Of a DNA stretch of 9,089 bases, positions 1 to 9,089 are shown piece by piece. The translations under genes were made by a program, and so were the position numbers. The DNA lies in the IMG/VR virus record IMGVR_UViG_2667527789_000012. One strand, written 5' to 3'. The notes beneath the pieces were generated by a model. That model was not told where the DNA came from, ran no database searches, and saw nothing but the letters and a program-made list of their open reading frames with translations. The stretch is from a virus (lineage: Duplodnaviria; Heunggongvirae; Uroviricota; Caudoviricetes). Every line of letters begins with the position of its first letter. The stretch's first letter is position 1.

Positions 1-1202
<1,202 letters not shown>

Positions 1203-1215
1203 CCTGAACCAGGAA

Positions 1216-2724
1216 TTATTCTTCGGACTGGTCGTCGGTGTGCTGCGGCTCCTGTCGTTTCGTTGCGGCACTACTGCCTCCTTTATCACTGGCCGGATCG
1301 GTATCAAATACCAGATCCAGATTGCGGTTTTCATCAATTTCGGCCTTGCGCCGACGTTTGACATCATCCGGATTACGACCACCAGCACGTACCCAGTCTG
1401 ATTCTGTCGCCGCTCCACCACGAATCTGGATTTTCCAGGCCTCAGCCTCCTTAACAGGGTCAATCCACGGCATCACTGGTCCGGAATACACCGCGGTATA
1501 CAGTGAAGAACGGTCAAGATCGCGGGGTAGCCTGATAACACCGGATGCCACAGCCTGTTTCAGCCATGCACGATACATCGGGCGGGTGACGGCACCAATA
1601 AACCAGTCCTGCAGGATCAGGTAGCCATCAGTGGATTCAACCAGCTCCTGACGCTGGGCGCTGTAAGTGCCGTTATAGTTGCGCGCTGTACTGGAAAAAC
1701 TCAGACGACTGCCCGCCGCCACGGCACGCAACTGACCATTACGAAAAGTTTCAAGGTTAGGATTGGGGCGATCCGACTTCACCATTCCGATTTCTTCGCC
1801 GGGTTTCAGATCGTCGTAAATAATGCCCGGCTGAATGGTAAGCTCACGTTCATTCTCCTTTCTGCCATTACCATCCGGTTCATAGCTCTGCCCGTCGCCT
1901 TTCCGGATGTACATCCCCAGAGCAGCGGCGATCCTTGCTGCAGTCAGCTCAGAATCTTCATATTCTTTCAGGGCACTGAGGCGGATCAGCACACCGGACA
2001 ACAAAGACGTCCCGCGCATCTGGTGCAGACGGCGAACAAATTTAAGATGCAGCATTCGCTCTGCATCCACTTCTTTGGTTTCCATCTGCCGTCCGGATAC
2101 GGGACGGCTTTTATACACCAGATATTTTTCGGGACGCCCCCAGTCATCAACAAACACGCCCTGATTCAGCCTGTTGCTCTCATCACTGGTCATGGGAATA
2201 AAGTCCGGCTCGAGCGCCTCCAGCCAGAAATGAACACCGGCAGAAGGCGCCAGGCTGTTTATGCGCCCGGAAACCATCTGGGCAAACACCTCACCATCGC
2301 GCAGCCAGGTACGAAGCATCAGACGTTCCAGCATCGGACGGGTAAACTGCCCGGTGACTTCCGGGCTGACAGACCATTCACTCCATCGGGTGCGAATCTC
2401 CGCAGCCAGGTCACGGGCAATGGCCCCATTGCGTAATACCGGATGTGGCTCGACAATAATCCCGTTTTTCCCCACCACCCGTTCTTCCAGCTTGTCAAAT
2501 ACACCAATAACCAGATCGTGGTTGTTATCAAGGTAACGGGCCTGCTCACGTAACGACACGGCCCCGTACTGGCTTAACTGGTCGGCAGTTCGGTTCTCCC
2601 GTCGGGCTTTGTGTGTCCGCGTCGTTTTTACGGCCTCATAAGCCTGGATCACCGCACGGGAACGCAGCCTTGCCGCTTTCCATCCTGGTGAAAAAACGCC
2701 AATCACATCATCAAGAATTGCCAT
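1216..2724 (-). CDS. Phage portal protein (lambda gpB-type position and size)
   Basis: 502 codons from the ATG at 2724 (MAILDDVIG...), preceded by GAGG at 5-nt spacing. The ATG overlaps the upstream gene's TGA (TGATG). It sits between the terminase/gpW genes and the protease, as in lambda Nu1-A-W-B-C. Family assignment is by synteny and size, not by a recognised motif. Confidence 0.75.
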   Translation of the reverse strand: MAILDDVIGVFSPGWKAARLRSRAVIQAYEAVKTTRTHKARRENRTADQLSQYGAVSLREQARYLDNNHDLVIGVFDKLEERVVGKNGIIVEPHPVLRNGAIARDLAAEIRTRWSEWSVSPEVTGQFTRPMLERLMLRTWLRDGEVFAQMVSGRINSLAPSAGVHFWLEALEPDFIPMTSDESNRLNQGVFVDDWGRPEKYLVYKSRPVSGRQMETKEVDAERMLHLKFVRRLHQMRGTSLLSGVLIRLSALKEYEDSELTAARIAAALGMYIRKGDGQSYEPDGNGRKENERELTIQPGIIYDDLKPGEEIGMVKSDRPNPNLETFRNGQLRAVAAGSRLSFSSTARNYNGTYSAQRQELVESTDGYLILQDWFIGAVTRPMYRAWLKQAVASGVIRLPRDLDRSSLYTAVYSGPVMPWIDPVKEAEAWKIQIRGGAATESDWVRAGGRNPDDVKRRRKAEIDENRNLDLVFDTDPASDKGGSSAATKRQEPQHTDDQSEE

Positions 2725-2936
2725 CAGAACCTCGCCAGCCGGTACCCGGGATGCCCCCGTCGTCGTGTAATCAGAGCCGCAAGGCGGCGCTCCCACTCCT
2801 GCCGTCCCTGCCGGATCTCAGATAAGTTTTCCATGGTCATCTGCTGACCATTAAAGGTGACGGATTTTCCGTCCAGCACCGCCATTTCAGCTTCCGTATA
2901 ACGCTGAATCATGGCTTCGATATCATTCTGGTTCAT
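2724..2936 (-). CDS. gpW-like head-tail joining (head completion) protein
   Basis: 70 aa, in the position of lambda W between terminase large subunit and portal. The C-terminal ...RRRGHPGY resembles the lambda gpW C-terminus (...RRRGPAGFYV, from memory). Start taken as the ATG at 2936 (GGAGG at 6-nt spacing), overlapping the terminase TGA as ATGA. Confidence 0.65.
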   Translation of the reverse strand: MNQNDIEAMIQRYTEAEMAVLDGKSVTFNGQQMTMENLSEIRQGRQEWERRLAALITRRRGHPGYRLARF

Positions 2937-5032
2937 AACCATCCTCCGGAAGTCAGCCAGGGGTTAACATCGTCAGTTACTGTTTTCTTCCGTTTTTGTT
3001 TTTTAACAGGCGTGGATACCGGTTCCGGTGAGGATGACGGTTCGGTACTGTCCTGGACACACTCCAGCCAGGTCTCCCGGCTCGCCCACTCCGGTGCATC
3101 CGGCCAGCGGATCTTTTCGTATCCATGCAGAATGACCAGAGCCTCGGCATACACCATCAGGTCAAAAGCTTCGTTGGCACCGCGACCCGGCTTACTCCAT
3201 TTCCCGTCACTGCTCCGCTCTTCATACGTCAGTTCGTCGTAAAACCAGCTCCCCAGCCAGTCAGGGAAATGCACATAGCCTGGACCTGGCGAGTCACGCC
3301 ATAACGCGTTATTCACCCGGTCTTTCAGGGCATCCGTCTGAAGAAGCCAGAGCGGCACATCACCTGCGGCCTGCGCCCGGCGGCCCGTTCGTCCGGTGTT
3401 ATCAGGGAATGTACGGCTGATCAGTTTTGCGCGCCGGATGCTGTCACCCTTAAACAGGTAAATACGTTTACCAAGGCCATCACGACGGCAACGACGCCAG
3501 AATTTATAGGCATTATCAGTGACCCCGTCTTCACCGCCGGAGTCCACCGCCATTGCCATCAGTCGCATTTGTTGAGAAGGATCGGAGGCCAGCGGCCAGC
3601 TTTTATGAAAAACATCCGTCAGCAGGACATCCCAGTCTTCCGGATAGCTGGCCGGATCAATTCGCTGGCTCTCCCCGTCGCAGTCACTGCGCAATGACTG
3701 CGTGATGTTGTAACGATCAATAATCCAGCGTTCGCCACGACTGCCATAGCCCGTTACCTGAACCACAAAACGGCGATGACGTCCCGCCTGCACATCCACT
3801 GTCGCCACAAGGAAATTAACGCCATCCGGCACACTGCGGGAAGGAACTGGCTCTGCCCGCTGCTCAAGCAGTTCACTTTTTCGTTGCTCCATGCTGGCAC
3901 GAGGAAGATAAGGCAATCCCCAGTCGGTGTTGATAACCGCCCTGAGTGTTTCTTCGCTTCCTGTCGCTTCATACTCCTGTTCTGCAGTCAGTAATTTGTA
4001 AACCAGTTGCGCCCAGGTCTGATACGCAGCAGCTGGCCCTTCCATCCAGAAACTGGCGATACGGGAGCGGCGCGGTTCACCGGAAACGTTGCCGTTACGA
4101 TCAATGACCTGACCTTCACGCAACCAGACTCCTGCACTATTGAGCTCACGCTTTTTCTCCGCAGTGATAATGCCGCTGCAGTGCGGGCAAAGTAGATACG
4201 CCGCCTCACTGGCTTTAAAGGGATCCGGTTCATTACGGTAGCCGGTCATGGCATCCATGGCTGGCTGAAAATATTCACCGCAGTGCGGACATGACCAGTA
4301 CCAGCGGCGGCGGTCACCACGATTGTAAAGGGAAAGAATACCAGTCGTCGGTGGCGCTTCATGAGGCGACTTACGTCGCCATTTGCTGTCGCAGATGTCA
4401 CGTCCCGGCGAGCTCTCCACCAGAGTCATCCCGGCGGACATAAATGTGGTGGTACGTTTTGAGGCCAGGGAGAAACCATCACCCTCGCTGTCGATATTCT
4501 CCGGAAAACGGTCGTAATCGGTTAAGGCGACAAACCGGTAATCCGACGACGACATAATGTTGACCGAGGGCCAACCAATTTTAAGGAACGAGCCATCCCT
4601 GAACGTCTTATCATGGACATTATTGTCGTTACGACGTGGACTCATTCTTTTCTTTACCGCCGCACTGCTTCTGAACGTTCTGTCGAGGCGCTTTTTAGAA
4701 TGCTCGCGGGCCTTATCTTCGGTCATCTGCACAACGAGCATGTCCGAAGGATCGCAAACGATGGTATAGACAATCCATCCATCGATCAGACCAATGGTCT
4801 TCCCTGTTCGCGCAGGACCAACAAAAATCACCGCATCGTATTCACGCGATGCCAGGCAGTTCATGGGCTCAATGATGTAGGGTGTCAGTTCAGGATCCCA
4901 TGGCACCGAGTTACCAGCCCCCTTGGGAACACGCATGAATTTTTTAACAGCCTCCGAAATCGGCATGCGACGTGGTGGGGAAAATCCTGCCGATATGTCC
5001 CTTCCCAAATTTCGGGCTGATGAAAAACCCAT
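2933..5032 (-). CDS. Terminase large subunit (lambda gpA family)
   Basis: 699 aa with a Walker A P-loop (VGPARTGKT) and paired Cys motifs (CPHCGEYF ... CPHCSG) like the CPHCGEE motif of lambda gpA. An HFPDW... segment near the C-terminus resembles lambda gpA HFPNNPD. Strong AGGAGG RBS 6 nt upstream of the ATG at 5032, immediately downstream of the small terminase gene. Confidence 0.9.
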   Translation of the reverse strand: MGFSSARNLGRDISAGFSPPRRMPISEAVKKFMRVPKGAGNSVPWDPELTPYIIEPMNCLASREYDAVIFVGPARTGKTIGLIDGWIVYTIVCDPSDMLVVQMTEDKAREHSKKRLDRTFRSSAAVKKRMSPRRNDNNVHDKTFRDGSFLKIGWPSVNIMSSSDYRFVALTDYDRFPENIDSEGDGFSLASKRTTTFMSAGMTLVESSPGRDICDSKWRRKSPHEAPPTTGILSLYNRGDRRRWYWSCPHCGEYFQPAMDAMTGYRNEPDPFKASEAAYLLCPHCSGIITAEKKRELNSAGVWLREGQVIDRNGNVSGEPRRSRIASFWMEGPAAAYQTWAQLVYKLLTAEQEYEATGSEETLRAVINTDWGLPYLPRASMEQRKSELLEQRAEPVPSRSVPDGVNFLVATVDVQAGRHRRFVVQVTGYGSRGERWIIDRYNITQSLRSDCDGESQRIDPASYPEDWDVLLTDVFHKSWPLASDPSQQMRLMAMAVDSGGEDGVTDNAYKFWRRCRRDGLGKRIYLFKGDSIRRAKLISRTFPDNTGRTGRRAQAAGDVPLWLLQTDALKDRVNNALWRDSPGPGYVHFPDWLGSWFYDELTYEERSSDGKWSKPGRGANEAFDLMVYAEALVILHGYEKIRWPDAPEWASRETWLECVQDSTEPSSSPEPVSTPVKKQKRKKTVTDDVNPWLTSGGWL

Positions 5033-5040
5033 TATTCCTC

Positions 5041-5568
5041 CTAGAGACTCTCTCCTTCCTCATCAGGAATTAATTCAGCAGCACAAGCCTCGTAGGATTT
5101 TTCCTGAAGAGTGTATCGCAGGTCATCAATGGCCTGCTGTACAACGCCGACGGCCTGAGGAGTCAGGGCGCAATCGCGTTCAAGAACATCCGGAATTGTC
5201 TCCAGAACCTGGACGACAGCCTTTCTCATGGACGAATAGACGATGACTACTTCATCAACGGGGATGAGTTTTCGCTGCTCCTTTTCCAGCTTGATCCTTT
5301 CATTTTCAGATTGGTACCAGTCCTTTCTCTCTTTCGGCTCCATACGGGATGGATCATGAACAGAGTCTGCTGCCTCATGCTTCACACTAAACAGGGCTGG
5401 CCCGACATGCTGCAGGGCGTAAACGGGGTTCCCCCTGATAGTCGCAGCCACAGGAGTGTTGGCCGCGAGGAGCCGTTTTTTTACTGTGTCCCGGTGAAGC
5501 CCAAAGGCCTCAGCGATTTTAAAAACACTCCAGTAATAAGCATCACCGATCCCGCTCACATTTGACAT
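5041..5568 (-). CDS. Terminase small subunit (lambda Nu1-like, N-terminal HTH)
   Basis: Lies directly upstream of the large terminase and about 190 bp downstream of the cos-like block. It has a predicted helix-turn-helix (FKIAEAFGLHRDTVKKRL), a Nu1-like charged middle region (KDWYQSENERIKLEKEQRK) and an acidic C-terminus. Start chosen at the ATG at 5568 (MSNVSG...; GGAG at 6-nt spacing); in-frame ATGs at 5598 and 5580 are alternatives. Confidence 0.75.
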   Translation of the reverse strand: MSNVSGIGDAYYWSVFKIAEAFGLHRDTVKKRLLAANTPVAATIRGNPVYALQHVGPALFSVKHEAADSVHDPSRMEPKERKDWYQSENERIKLEKEQRKLIPVDEVVIVYSSMRKAVVQVLETIPDVLERDCALTPQAVGVVQQAIDDLRYTLQEKSYEACAAELIPDEEGESL

Positions 5569-5688
5569 AAGCAACTCCATCTGGCAGGTGAAAATCATGT
5601 TTATTTATATATTTCAATTAATTGCAAACTGGTCTAATGACAGGGAGAAAAAAATATTGTACAGGTGAAAAGAGAAATAACTTTTAAT

Positions 5689-5701
5689 TATCAATAAATT
5701 A
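5689..5701. promoter_or_regulatory. IHF-like binding site in the cosB position
   Basis: TATCAATAAATTA matches the IHF consensus WATCAAnnnnTTR. It lies in the AT-rich stretch between the cosN-like block and the small terminase start, where lambda has its I1 IHF site. Confidence 0.3.
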
Positions 5702-5744
5702 CCAAACATGCTGCCGCCGCCATGGAAATGCAAAAACTAGCCTT

Positions 5745-5780
5745 TTTCCGCGACGCTCCCGCCCCGTGGCAGGGGCCCCC
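5745..5780 (-). other. cos site core (cosN-like cohesive-end region of a lambda-type packaging site)
   Basis: In gene sense the sequence reads CACGGGGCGGGAGCGTCGCGGAAAAAGGC, closely resembling the lambda left end GGGCGGCGACCTCGCGGGTTTTCGC (recalled). Distance to the Nu1-like start is about 190 bp, as in lambda, with an AT-rich cosB-like stretch in between. Exact nick positions cannot be determined from sequence. Confidence 0.6.
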
Positions 5781-5793
5781 ACCGGGAGGACCC

Positions 5794-5820
5794 GACAGCC
5801 TGACAGCCTGACAGCCGTGA
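5794..5820. repeat. Tandem direct repeat GACAGCCT x3 (third copy degenerate) on the Rz side of cosN
   Basis: GACAGCCTGACAGCCTGACAGCCGTGA read directly, immediately after a GGGGCCCC palindrome (5772-5779). Located where a cosQ-like element or terminase/host-factor sites would be expected. Confidence 0.6.
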
Positions 5821-5952
5821 TGAGCATCTGATACAGCGCTTTACATAATGGCATAGGAATAATTCAGAAGGACATCACAGCATGCCCACACAAATTAGTG
5901 TGAGTGTCCTGTTTCTTCCTACGCACAGGACTGACGAGCATGAGGGGAAAAT

Positions 5953-6120
5953 ATGCGAACCATAAATGCCTCATCTTCAGCAATGCAACCGGCATCCGAA
6001 CAGGACGATATTGTAAATTCACCTAATTACGAGGACATTGCAGTAGTTGAATTGCAGCTCTGTATTAGCCTGACAGTGACAGAATGCGATATTGACTCTG
6101 TCACAGGTGAAATAGTTTGA
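5953..6120 (+). CDS. Hypothetical small acidic protein (55 aa); not in the ORF track
   Basis: ATG at 5953 preceded by GAGGGG at 5-nt spacing, running to TGA at 6118-6120. Translation MRTINASSSAMQPASEQDDIVNSPNYEDIAVVELQLCISLTVTECDIDSVTGEIV has 10 Asp/Glu against 1 Arg. Contains rare codons (CGA, ATA) and no promoter was identified, so coding status is uncertain. Confidence 0.3.
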   Translation: MRTINASSSAMQPASEQDDIVNSPNYEDIAVVELQLCISLTVTECDIDSVTGEIV

Positions 6121-6140
6121 ATGATTAGCAGTTATGGTGC

Positions 6141-6347
6141 TCAGTCAACCACCAGGGAATAATCCTTCGAATTCTTATCGTGCTTCACCAACGCTGCCTC
6201 AATTGCCCTGAATGCTTCCAGAGACACCTGATGTTCTATACATGCAATTACAACATCCGGGTAACTCATAGAAATGGTGCTATTAAGCATATTTTTTACA
6301 CGAATCAGATCCAACGAGAGTTCATCAGCAGATTGTTCTTTATTCAT
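6141..6347 (-). CDS. Hypothetical protein (68 aa), cos-proximal accessory gene
   Basis: ORF with GGAG at 7-nt spacing before the ATG at 6347, convergent with the 55-aa ORF (stops 20 bp apart). No family recognised; possibly the counterpart of a small Qin-prophage gene next to the Nu1 homolog. Confidence 0.5.
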
Positions 6348-6647
6348 TTTGTCGCTCCATGCGTTTGCTCGTCATCTAGCGGTTGAAATATTACTTCAAA
6401 TCTTACTGCATAAAAGAGGAAAAGTATGAAAGTTTGAGTACATCGACCTTACATACATCTGTCGGTTGCATATCCCTCCTGGATGCCAGCAAGGCTCAAT
6501 TTTGTTACGCAATCAACACTATTCATCAAAAACAGGCTTAATATTTGACATAAATCATCAACAAAACACAAAGAGGTCAGACCAGATTGAAACAATAAAC
6601 ACGATAATGCTAACTACGCGCCATCGTATCACATGGAAGGTTTACCA

Positions 6648-7058
6648 ATGGCTCAGGCTGCCATTTTTAAAGAAATATTCGATCAAGTGCGTAAAGATTT
6701 AAACTGTGAATTATTTTATTCTGAGCTAAAACGTCACAATGTCTCACTTTATATTTACTATTTAGCCACAGATAATATTCACATTGTGTTAGAAAACGAC
6801 AACATAGTGTTAGTAAAAGGACTCAAAAAGGTTGTAAATGTTAAATTCTCCAGAAACAAACATCTTATAGAGACCTCCTATAATAAGTTGAAATCAAAAG
6901 AAATCACATTTCAACAATACAGGGAAAATCTTGCTAAAGCAGGAGTTTTCCGATGGGTTACAAATATCCAGGAACACCAAAGATATTACTATGCCTTTGA
7001 TAACTCATTACTATTTACTGAAAGCATCCAGAAAACTACACAGATCTTACCACGCTAA
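6648..7058 (+). CDS. DUF1398-family prophage protein (YdfO/YbcV-like)
   Basis: 136 aa from the ATG at 6648 (GGAAGG about 6 nt upstream; the track ORF begins 5 codons earlier). AT-rich with an internally repeated architecture. It occupies the position of ydfO between the Nu1 homolog and gnsB in Qin. Family assignment is from memory and synteny. Confidence 0.55.
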
Positions 7059-7067
7059 ACCATAACG

Positions 7068-7094
7068 TCCGGCTTCTCTCACTCCTGAGCCGGA
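7068..7094 (+). terminator. Hairpin downstream of the DUF1398 gene (possible weak terminator)
   Basis: TCCGGCT ... AGCCGGA forms a 7-bp stem with a 13-nt loop, 10 nt after the stop at 7056-7058. The following sequence is only modestly U-rich. Confidence 0.3.
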
Positions 7095-7150
7095 CTGCAT
7101 TGGTTTAATAAAAACCATCAACAATTGTGATTTAGATATTCGGAACCATT

Positions 7151-7180
7151 CAAATATAACAAAACCCCGTAAAAACGAGG
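7151..7180 (-). terminator. Rho-independent terminator downstream of the gnsB-like gene
   Basis: Minus-strand sense CCTCGT-TTTT-ACGGGG (5 Watson-Crick pairs plus one G-U) followed by TTTTGTTATATTTG, about 30 nt after the gnsB-like stop. Confidence 0.4.
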
Positions 7181-7209
7181 TTTATGGATAAATTTTATTA
7201 TTGAATACA

Positions 7210-7383
7210 TCAGATTAAATTAATCTTGACATCATAGCTTTCAAGACCCGTCATTTTTTCCCGTGCGGTAAACTGAATACTGGTAACTTCTTTCCCGGTC
7301 TTTTTCTTAAGTTCAATAATTTTTTTTGTTATATATTCAGAAATATCTGCTTCTGCTTTTGTTTTTAAGTTTTCAATATTCAT
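7210..7383 (-). CDS. gnsB: GnsA/GnsB-family protein (57 aa)
   Basis: Not in the ORF track (below length cut-off). Translation MNIENLKTKAEADISEYITKKIIELKKKTGKEVTSIQFTAREKMTGLESYDVKINLI, same length as and close to recalled E. coli GnsA/GnsB (MNIEELKKQAE...KNTGKEV...RFTAREKMTGLESYDVKIKIM). RBS AGAGGAA lies 5 nt before the ATG at 7383. Confidence 0.8.
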   Translation of the reverse strand: MNIENLKTKAEADISEYITKKIIELKKKTGKEVTSIQFTAREKMTGLESYDVKINLI

Positions 7384-7431
7384 CATTTCCTCTTTTAGTC
7401 TGTTATGACTTTCCAGTTACACAGTAAGTCG

Positions 7432-7437
7432 ATTATA
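7432..7437 (-). promoter_or_regulatory. Candidate -10 hexamer (TATAAT) for the gnsB-like gene
   Basis: A perfect TATAAT on the minus strand about 50 nt upstream of the gnsB-like start; the -35 is weak (TTATCT at 17-nt spacing). Confidence 0.3.
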
Positions 7438-7554
7438 TGGTGCAAACGTGTAAAAGATAAGATGAAACATCGCAATAATCAACATACGATAGTCTAAATT
7501 TTACACAAACAGACAAAGAGAATTTTCCTGAATTATCAATACAATAGCATCAAA

Positions 7555-7785
7555 TCAACTCAAGAGCCTTATTGCTGCTTCCAGAATTTCTTCTGAAGTA
7601 ACATGTCGATCCGCGGCTACATAAATGACTTTATGATCTCCGGTCAGAGATGGAAACCCTGCGGCCATTACAGTAAGGTGTGTTTTTTCGCCATTTGGAT
7701 ATTCACGCATGATGGTGTTAACTCCAGTCATCGCTGGCACTACCACTGCTGGTTCAGAGTTAAAAAAAACTATGATTTTTTTCAT
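7555..7785 (-). CDS. Hypothetical small protein (76 aa), YnfN/YmcE-like by position
   Basis: ORF starting at the ATG at 7785 (MKKIIVFFNSEPAVVV...); the track ORF's extra 14 codons begin at a TTG. It sits between cspI and gnsB like ynfN in Qin, and its length equals that of YmcE, the GnsA neighbour. No sequence-level recognition; weak SD. Confidence 0.5.
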   Translation of the reverse strand: MKKIIVFFNSEPAVVVPAMTGVNTIMREYPNGEKTHLTVMAAGFPSLTGDHKVIYVAADRHVTSEEILEAAIRLLS

Positions 7786-7825
7786 GATGTTACCGTAGTA
7801 TGTGAGTATCCATCGAATAGATACC

Positions 7826-7868
7826 AAGCAAAAAAGCTCCCGAAGGAGCCTTCATTTTCACTTTTTTA
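7826..7868 (-). terminator. Rho-independent terminator ending the cspI transcript (hairpin is U-flanked on both strands)
   Basis: Minus-strand sense GCTCC-TTCG-GGAGC followed by TTTTTT. On the plus strand the same stem is followed by CTTCATTTTCACTTTTTT. Confidence 0.5.
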
Positions 7869-8056
7869 AATCCAACGACAGACGGCTGGCATTTAAGTAT
7901 TGTGAAATATTATCAAATGTAATCATCATTGATTTACAAAAGATACATTTTGCCCCGAAAGGATTCATGTCAGAAACATCAAAAGATGATGTTCTATACT
8001 GGGAACCATGACAACACGGGCATCTAAAGTGAATATGGTTTGTAATATTGTCTACC

Positions 8057-8269
8057 TCAAAGCGCCACTACATGAACAGCGGCAGGACCTTTAGGTCCGT
8101 TCTCAATACCAAATTCAACTTCCTGATTCTCAGTTAATGTTTTGAAATCGTTGCTCTGAATTGCTGAGAAATGGACAAACACATCTTTGCTGCCATCTTT
8201 CGGCGTGATGAAACCAAAACCTTTTTCAGGGTTAAACCATTTCACTAAACCAGTCATTTTGTTAGACAT
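8057..8269 (-). CDS. cspI: Cold-shock protein, CspA family (70 aa)
   Basis: [38 protein letters not shown]... carries the RNP1/RNP2 cold-shock-domain motifs (KGFGFI, VFVHF). AAAGGTAATAATT-ATG mirrors the cspA translation initiation region. The symbol cspI is assigned from Qin-like synteny (gnsB-ynfN-cspI-Rz) and recalled sequence. Confidence 0.85.
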
Positions 8270-8449
8270 AATTATTACCTTTTGAAGAAATTAGCCCTTG
8301 GGCAGAATGGTCCGAAAAAAAATATCAGAGAGAAAAACCAACAAGGAAATCTCAAGAGGTACAAATAATAAAATTATAACAATGACTGCTTCAGATAAAT
8401 TTGTAACAAACCAGAACACCATTAACGCATGATTAACCACCCATAGCAA
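8270..8449 (-). promoter_or_regulatory. cspI promoter and long 5' leader
   Basis: Minus-strand -35 TTGCTA (8449-8444), 17-nt spacer, -10 GTTAAT (8426-8421), similar to the cspA promoter, with AT-rich DNA upstream. Predicted start near 8414 gives a leader of about 145 nt, as expected for cold-inducible csp genes. Confidence 0.5.
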
Positions 8450-8631
8450 GGATTACTTTTGTAAAGAAAAACACAGCAATGAAAGAATAGCTTTATTTAT
8501 TAATAAAACGTGTCATTCTGATTAAGACCTTTTATCTTACCCTTAAGATTTCAGGAATTTTGGCTCATGGAAGAGTCCTTTTTATTTAAATTTTACATTC
8601 CGCGATGTAAATGTTCCGATTTAATATTACC

Positions 8632-9089
<458 letters not shown>

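Follow-up and report, generated by a model that had tools for sequence, protein, structure and literature searches.

The window analysed here, a stretch of 9,089 nucleotides, carries genes in the order of a standard lambdoid late region, where the cos site should lie between lysis genes and terS. Rz/Rz1 (9027–8632, minus strand) is followed by several Qin-type morons, namely cspI (8269–8057, minus strand), a ynfN-like ORF on the same strand between cspI and gnsB in the listed gene order, gnsB (7386–7210, minus strand), ydfO/ybcV (6633–7058, plus strand), and a ybcW-like ORF (6347–6141, minus strand). An intergenic region then leads to the terminase genes, terS (5041–5568) and terL (2933–5032), and to the head genes, all on the minus strand: a complete W-like ORF between terL and portal, a complete portal gene of the lambda family (2796–1216), and a ClpP-protease/major-capsid fusion gene whose ORF is uninterrupted up to the window edge. 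Offsets with a plus sign are counted below in gene sense, i.e. along the minus strand, from the predicted left genome end at position 5764.

The terminase genes

The small terminase, TerS, is a 175-residue protein matching DUF1441 in Pfam (E 3.9e-44) and phrog_141 (1.8e-64). The ATG at 5568 (+197) is preceded by a GGAG Shine-Dalgarno sequence and is the start used by RefSeq and by the record of phage Tritos, while alternative starts occur at 5580 (+185), which is used in the record of phage cdtI, and at 5598 (+167). A preliminary description of this DNA had called the gene Nu1-like and had placed its start about 190 bp from cos, as in lambda. The spacing agrees with our measurement, +197 for the window compared with +191 for lambda Nu1. 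The Nu1-like label stands for remote homology, as indicated by reciprocal PHROG matches, but not for membership in the Phage_Nu1 family, since Pfam assigns the protein to DUF1441.

Indeed, DUF1441 is the sole Pfam match of the window TerS, with 150.6 bits (cut-off 35.1) over profile positions 3–144 of 147, and Phage_Nu1 gave no match. Direct comparison of TerS with lambda Nu1 was not significant, either by BLASTP (E 4.6) or by hhalign (probability 1.4%). With PHROG profiles, the window TerS matches phrog_57, the family of lambda Nu1, at 1.7e-9, next to its primary match to phrog_141, and lambda Nu1 matches phrog_141 at 5.6e-8 and phrog_57 at 1.3e-76. Because these cross-matches are reciprocal yet secondary, we regard TerS as a remote homologue of Nu1 that lies outside the Nu1 family; judged from its sequence, it is a member of DUF1441/phrog_141 with a presumably Nu1-like role. 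Both BLASTP and hhalign place the helix-turn-helix in the same register, residues 15–49 of TerS with residues 5–39 of Nu1.

Searches of PDB sequences with TerS and with a 39-sequence profile returned nothing relevant. The AlphaFold2 model of TerS (mean pLDDT 82.5, and 86–90 over residues 11–60) shows an N-terminal strand-helix-helix-strand-strand-helix arrangement, i.e. a winged helix-turn-helix, followed by long helices. The N-terminal domain of Nu1 folds as a MerR-like winged helix-turn-helix. The best local Foldseek matches of the model in the PDB are MerR-type domains, those of RacA, BldC, and MerR regulators, with non-significant E values of 0.1–1 and none as low as 0.001, and Nu1 is not found in the top 50 matches.

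The large terminase, TerL, has 699 residues and belongs to the gpA family (Pfam GpA_ATPase, 4.2e-80; GpA_nuclease, 1.8e-86), a family associated with 5'-extended cos ends (PMC12315714). It shares 24% identity with lambda gpA over 627 aligned columns (BLASTP, E 3e-22) and is predicted to be the nicking enzyme at cosN. A gpA-type TerL adjoins terS in every relative examined.

cosQ, cosN, and the ends of deposited genomes

In gene sense, the intergenic region reads ...GGCTGTCAGGCTGTCAGGCTGTC GGGTCCT CCCGGTGGGGGCCCCTGCCACG / GGGCGGGAGCGT / CGCGGAAAAAGGCTAGTTTTTGCATTTCCATGGCGGCGGCAGCATGTTTGGTAATTTATTGATAATT..., where slashes delimit the predicted cohesive end. The equivalent layout in lambda is ...ACGGGTCCTTTCCGGTGATCCGACAGGTTACG / GGGCGGCGACCT / CGCGGGTTTTCGC.... 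The G+C content is 63–78% over 5720–5839, which comprises cosQ and cosN, compared with 23–33% over 5600–5719, the cosB-like segment that lies downstream in gene sense. The resemblance of the GC-rich block at 5748–5765 to lambda, which had been noted before, amounts to 14 of 18 positions (GGGGCGGGAGCGTCGCGG in gene sense, GGGGCGGCGACCTCGCGG in lambda). For the composite pattern GGGTCCT-N(18-26)-CGGGGCGG-N6-CG, the window has a single match, at 5793–5751 on the minus strand, and 200 dinucleotide-preserving shuffles have none.

The first element of this pattern, a cosQ-like heptamer GGGTCCT at 5787–5793 (minus strand), has the same letters as lambda cosQ (bp 48473–48479 of the lambda genome) and is invariant in an alignment of 37 DUF1441-class cos sites. 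It is separated from the predicted top-strand nick by 22 nt, compared with 23 nt in lambda. The preliminary description had overlooked this element.

The second element, cosN, has the form CG/GGGCGGGAGCGT/CG and occupies 5751–5766 on the minus strand, as identified from its letters and from the deposited genome ends of cdtI and Tritos. The minus strand is predicted to be nicked between 5765 and 5764, in line with these two records, which start at 5764 and end at 5765, and the plus strand between 5753 and 5752, by homology with lambda. These nicks would leave a 5' cohesive end at 5764–5753 (minus strand), whose length of 12 nt follows from homology; we infer both length and polarity of the overhang from lambda. 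The window end equals that of lambda at 8 of 12 positions, with differences at bp 7, 8, 9, and 11; its left half, GGGCGG, is shared with lambda, and so are the CG flanks on the two sides, which lie 12 bp apart. The two-fold symmetry of cosN extends to 8 of 16 bp in the window, compared with 10 of 16 in lambda.

According to work of the Feiss laboratory, lambda-like phages are defined by 12-base 5' extensions similar to that of lambda, among which bp 7–12 of the end often differ (N15 at 9 and 12; Gifsy-1 at 8, 9, and 11) and the nick-flanking CG pairs and the 7-bp cosQ are kept (PMC4669245). As far as the letters can tell, the pattern of identity between the window and lambda agrees with this natural variation.

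Between cosN and cosB, at the position of lambda I2, lies the segment CGCGGAAAAAGGCTAGTTTTT (+13 to +33; 5732–5752, minus strand). It is nearly invariant in the 37 DUF1441-class sites and in seven remoter relatives, whereas the flanking cosB is variable. It also distinguishes the window from lambda, which has GGTTTTCGCTATTTATG in place of GGAAAAAGGCTAGTTTTT.

Other features are shared with lambda, such as an AT-rich cosB with an IHF consensus, a TerS start about 190–197 bp from the end, and a TerL of the gpA family. Further differences from lambda are the lack of the lambda R sequences in the window, the DUF1441 rather than Phage_Nu1 type of TerS, and the low identity of TerL.

Independent evidence for the position of the cut comes from related phages. 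We compared positions 5950–5500 with 50,697 phage records by megablast. Base 1 of cdtI (AB285204 / NC_009514) and base 1 of Tritos (OV696610) both fall on query position 187, which is window position 5764, and the first bases of both records are GGGCGGGAGCGT, coinciding with the end that had been predicted in the preliminary description. The last bases are ...GGTCCTCCCGGTGGGGGCCCCTGCCACG in Tritos and ...GGGTCCTTCCGGTGGGGTGGCCTGCCACG in cdtI, and the right ends of both records (...CCACG) correspond to window position 5765. Hence, for two near-identical phages, those who deposited the records put the genome ends at the predicted nick, although analogy with lambda may have guided this choice. 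The paper on the Tritos record describes only the re-annotation, without how the ends were chosen (PMC9928086), and a cos feature is annotated in neither record. In open-access full text, the 12-mer GGGCGGGAGCGT was not found in a phage context, and its complement and sister variants led to unrelated papers and to the LLS/mEp213 paper. The two ends are joined in the window, because it represents a chromosomal copy of the prophage.

From the left end to +115, the cos region of Tritos is 100% identical to the window and that of cdtI 97.4%, and TerS and TerL are the same in both phages, with 99.3–99.4% identity to the window along the 1765 nt that follow the left end. At the right end of Tritos, the final 2300 nt are 99.7% identical to the window, and this right arm shares cspI, ynfN, gnsB, ybcV/ydfO, and ybcW with it. 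In cdtI, the right arm upstream of cosQ bears no relation to the window, and homology starts at cosQ; the mosaic junction thus coincides with the edge of the proposed functional unit.

cosB and its pairing with the small terminase

Initiation of packaging at lambda-like sites requires cosN and cosB, with TerS bound at the R sites and IHF at I1 (PMC4669245). The AT-rich, cosB-like stretch with an IHF consensus that had been described earlier is indeed present, with a G+C content of 23–33% and a single IHF match. This match, TATCAATAAATTA, lies at 5689–5701 (plus strand; +64 to +76 in gene sense), where it would be the equivalent of I1. It was found by pattern search with the consensus WATCAANNNNTTR, which has no second match anywhere in the 9 kb of the window. 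Chance would give about 0.5 matches per window, and therefore about 0.01 per 150-bp stretch. An exact IHF consensus at +61 to +64, in the same orientation, occurs in 15 of 35 unique DUF1441-class sites, and a TTGA[AT] core at +65 to +71 (TTGAT near +70) is kept in nearly all of them.

On the cosN side of the IHF match lies a GC-rich imperfect palindrome, CATGGCGGCGGCAGCATG (+41 to +58; 5707–5724, minus strand), which overlaps the position of R3 in lambda (bp 50–65) and in N15 (bp 48–60) (PMC9026076). This stretch co-varies with the TerS N-terminal domain over three cosB types, and a relative, L137, has a better palindrome, CATGCTGGCGGCAGCATG. We consider it a candidate primary binding site for TerS. 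A direct repeat, TTTTCACCTG, is present in two exact copies, the first at +94 to +103 (5662–5671, minus strand), the R2 position in relatives, and the second at +171 to +180 (5585–5594, minus strand), 17 nt before the TerS start and analogous to lambda R1. The relative L133, whose TerS is 75% identical, has both copies at the same offsets despite diverged flanks, and the CTG at +101 to +103 is invariant in 8 relatives. These two repeats are reasonable candidates for additional TerS sites.

A scan for R sites with 10-mers, allowing up to 2 mismatches, recovered R3, R2 (inverted), and R1 of lambda as a positive control. The same scan shows a direct-inverted-direct set at about +47, +94, and +121 in two other cosB types of the DUF1441 class, A and B, and finds no R3/R2(inverted)/R1 triple in the window-type cosB. 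A further repeat search of the window cosB gave low-complexity AT-rich pairs only.

We scanned IMG/VR with the composite pattern described above and, with further loci added, obtained at least 133 sites, a count that contains duplicates, is biased by the search pattern, and is indicative only. Among the matches listed, the lambda cohesive end GGGCGGCGACCT is the commonest (at least 65 sites) and the window variant GGGCGGGAGCGT the second commonest (at least 16), and the mEp213-type end GGGCGGCGCGCT occurs at least 8 times. The type of TerS downstream of each site was assigned by tblastn. A DUF1441 TerS follows 14 of the 16 listed sites with the window variant. The spacer between cosQ and the nick appears to follow the TerS lineage, as it measures 23 nt in 62 of the 67 listed sites with a Nu1-like TerS downstream and 22 nt in 34 of the 37 with a DUF1441-like TerS.

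Alignment of the 37 unique DUF1441-class sites shows that CCTGCCACG/GGGCGG and the CG after base 12 are kept, and that the +13 to +33 segment, with the consensus CGCGG(A/G)AAA(A/C)GGCTAGTTTT, is strongly kept. The geometry is the same at seven loci with a remoter TerS of the window type (55–83% identical), where the ATG lies about 198 nt from the end. Remoter members with a DUF1441 TerS have AGGTACT in place of the supposedly invariant cosQ GGGTCCT, and remoter relatives show AG for CG on the left flank of cosN, together with altered left halves.

The DUF1441-class sites divide into discrete types from +37 onward, and each type is paired with one TerS N-terminus. In the +41 to +58 region, type A has TCGTCATCACCAC and a TerS starting with MDRELKNL..SGVHRQTAAARL, type B has GGTCATCATCATCAT and a TerS starting with MDQEIATL..TGVHRQTVAARL, and the window type has CATGGCGGCGGCAGCATG and a TerS N-terminus containing ..YYWSVFKIAEAFGLHRDTVKKRL. 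It is tempting, if doubtful, to see in the window-type cosB and its own TerS DNA-binding domain (..YYWSVFKIAEAFGLHRDTVKKRL..) a distinct class of packaging specificity, unlike the R3-I1-R2(inverted)-R1 arrangement of lambda. Such a class might, as an equally tentative proposal, consist of the GC-rich palindromic primary site at +41 to +58 and the direct repeat TTTTCACCTG, once at +94 and again at +171.

Two known systems illustrate these relationships. The phages mEp213 and LLS, and other lambdoids with a DUF1441 TerS and Gifsy-2-like heads, belong to the same sub-class as the window, with a 22-nt spacer, the CGCGG(A/G)AAA(A/C)GGCTAGTTTT block, and an IHF core close to +70, as well as a gene in which protease and capsid are fused. 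They differ from it in the end's right half, in their cosB, which is of the GGTCATCATCATCAT type with clear direct-inverted-direct repeats, and in the TerS N-terminal domain. The putative end of this group has been given as GGGCGGCGCGCT (PMC12315714). The Qin prophage of K-12 (nohA region) shares rzpQ, cspI, ynfN, gnsB, and ydfO with the window, as well as a cos site right before the small-terminase gene, but this site is a canonical lambda cos, GGGCGGCGACCT, with a 23-nt spacer, the gene product is a true Nu1 homologue, NohA, and the head genes downstream are deleted. The window has another module for packaging and the head, and a complete one.

Proposed function of the site and alternative readings

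We conclude, with a probability of about 0.9, that positions 5793 to about 5585 (minus strand) constitute the functional cohesive-end site of a lambdoid prophage of the Tritos/cdtI type. Two observations weigh against this reading, namely the lower two-fold symmetry of cosN than in lambda and the lack of a recognisable R3/R2(inverted)/R1 triple in the window-type cosB. The element is already known in the sense that deposited phage genomes have the same letters as their termini, and it obeys the published rules for lambda-like cos sites.

We infer the mechanism, including the binding of TerS and IHF, by homology with lambda. TerS dimers would bind cosB through their N-terminal winged helix-turn-helix, the candidate sites being the stretch at +41 to +58 and the TTTTCACCTG copies at +94 and +171, and IHF would bend the DNA at +64 to +76. 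The bent complex would set the gpA-family TerL on cosN, where it would introduce two nicks 12 bp apart, on the gene-sense strand between 5765 and 5764 and on the opposite strand between 5753 and 5752. The product would be the 5' overhang GGGCGGGAGCGT, and packaging would then take in terS and terL, moving toward lower window coordinates. At the next cos of the concatemer, cosQ (GGGTCCT), cosN, and the +13 to +33 segment would direct the terminating cut.

The most serious alternative is that the site is a relic in a defective prophage, whose own terminase no longer acts on it and which is packaged only by a co-resident helper of the same specificity. The preliminary description leaned in this direction when it spoke of a retained cos site. 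Over 8965 nt, several complete E. coli chromosomes match the window at 100%. The surrounding element resembles Qin, and Qin is cryptic in K-12. In strain 190, where 97% of the window is matched at 100% identity, frameshifts affect xis and an exonuclease gene, and an IS1 lies between gnsB and ydfO; some copies of the prophage are therefore probably defective. Partners for cross-packaging also exist, given that the cos region has matches in 2112 of the 5426 complete E. coli genomes (about 40%), with up to 7 per genome, although only 661 of these 2112 genomes cover at least 80% of the 451-bp query.

Nevertheless, a relic seems unlikely to us, although clearly less so than the other alternatives below, and the framing as a retained remnant does not fit the window itself. 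Its terS, terL, W-like, and portal genes are complete, its protease-capsid ORF is unbroken to the edge, and all of them have strong family matches. Tritos, which is 99.4–99.7% identical and whose cos region is the same, letter for letter, from the left end to +115, is a live phage that makes virions and plaques: it corresponds to prophage 3 of E. coli LF82, for which spontaneous induction at 2.8e6 genomes/mL, electron microscopy, and a plaque isolate have been reported (PMC9928086).

The related suggestion that a helper phage could package across this site is plausible for a helper with the same type of cosB and TerS. A lambda or phage 21 helper is not expected to initiate here, because cosB and the DNA-binding domain of TerS differ. 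In experiments with lambda, 21, and N15, only termination at cosQ-cosN was independent of cosB specificity (PMC4669245), and by analogy heterologous lambda-like terminases could terminate, but not initiate, packaging at the window cos.

We regard as quite improbable a second alternative, in which the locus is cut but the ends depart from the lambda model, with an overhang other than 12 nt or with shifted nicks. It draws on the derivation of the overhang length from homology, on the AG left flank and altered left halves of remoter relatives, by which the nick geometry is perhaps not rigid, and on the identity of just 24% between TerL and lambda gpA. The functional cos site with lambda-type ends is favoured over it by the CG flanks exactly 12 bp apart and the left half shared with lambda, by the cdtI and Tritos genomes, both cut between CG and GGGCGG, and by the tie of the gpA family to 5'-extended cos ends (PMC12315714). 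The third alternative, a chance GC-rich similarity to lambda with pac/headful packaging from elsewhere, has next to no probability in view of the absence of matches in 200 shuffles, the conservation of the site, with its distance from terS fixed, in dozens of phages, a TerL of gpA rather than headful type, and the deposited genome termini at the site. A cos site of a satellite or PICI was also considered and rejected, because the element's own terS, terL, and head genes directly follow it.

For annotation, the site marks where packaging starts and where the virion genome ends in a common type of E. coli prophage. The direction of packaging follows from it too, and this matters for how Chi sites are oriented and for any cos-dependent transfer among co-resident prophages. 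The general understanding of cos packaging is unchanged, as the site follows the rules of the Feiss laboratory. Two minor points are new and will concern packaging specialists only, namely the split between 22- and 23-nt spacers by TerS lineage and the R-site architecture of the window cosB type, in which no clear R3/R2/R1 triple stands out.

A scan of 5450–6200 for promoters and terminators gave nothing above shuffle expectation in the cos region. A 51-residue ORF at 5699–5854, which crosses cos, was taken as spurious; the HannyBb record has 'hypothetical proteins' over the same stretch.

Packaging-site geometry and small terminase lineage

The distance between cosQ and the predicted nick appears, from sequence comparison, to split according to the lineage of the small terminase, with 23 nt for Nu1-like proteins and 22 nt for DUF1441-like proteins. 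Among the matches listed from IMG/VR (loci L009-L128, together with window 5765-5793), the 23-nt spacing occurs in 62 of the 67 sites associated with a Nu1-like small terminase and the 22-nt spacing in 34/37 of the DUF1441-like sites, these counts including duplicates and coming from a sample biased by the search pattern.

The literature describes no natural variation in cosQ (PMC4669245). In more distant relatives of the window's small terminase (loci L132-L138), GGGTCCT is replaced at the cosQ position by AGGTACT (or GGGTCCC); in L132, L134, L135, L137, and L138 the region concerned lies upstream of terS and spans roughly -230 to -190 relative to the ATG. The presumed cohesive end has a left half other than GGGCGG in L133, L136, and L137, where its left flank is also AG rather than CG. 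The conserved +13..+33 block between cosN and cosB is preserved in these distant relatives, and the ATG still lies ~198 nt from the presumed end.

Repeats and reading frames at cos

Directly adjoining cosQ, three tandem 8-mers, GGCTGTCA GGCTGTCA GGCTGTCG, occupy window 5794-5817 (minus strand). Phage Tritos carries the identical three copies, whereas HannyBb, PhiR40_1, and mEp460 have two each and cdtI has none. Because cdtI lacks them entirely, the array is not required for cos. A 51-aa ORF on the minus strand (window 5699-5854) spans both cosQ and cosN, and the HannyBb record carries "hypothetical proteins" over the equivalent stretch; in all likelihood the cos site has been miscalled as coding sequence here.

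Modular exchange and flanking genes

Between Rz and cos lies a moron block (window 6141-8269) comprising cspI, ynfN-like, gnsB, ydfO/ybcV, and ybcW-like genes, which the window has in common with Tritos and with the Qin prophage of E. coli K-12. In Qin the block is joined to lambda cos and nohA, whereas in the window it is joined to the variant cos and the DUF1441 terS. The joining of different packaging modules to a shared moron block represents modular exchange at or near cos.

A ClpP-type prohead protease ORF (window 1-1463, minus strand) extends past the window edge. The equivalent gene is annotated in RefSeq as a protease/major-capsid fusion, which corresponds to a head module of the Gifsy-2/mEp213 type (PMC12315714). 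At the other end, the alignment of genomes that match positions 1-8965 at 100% leaves out window 8966-9089, the final 124 nt, within Rz, which points to a mosaic junction among the lysis genes.

In the genome of E. coli strain 190, which otherwise is 100% identical to the window over 97% of its length, an IS1 (L006 17977-18674) separates gnsB from the DUF1398 (ydfO-like) gene, and the same prophage also carries frameshifts in xis and an exonuclease gene.
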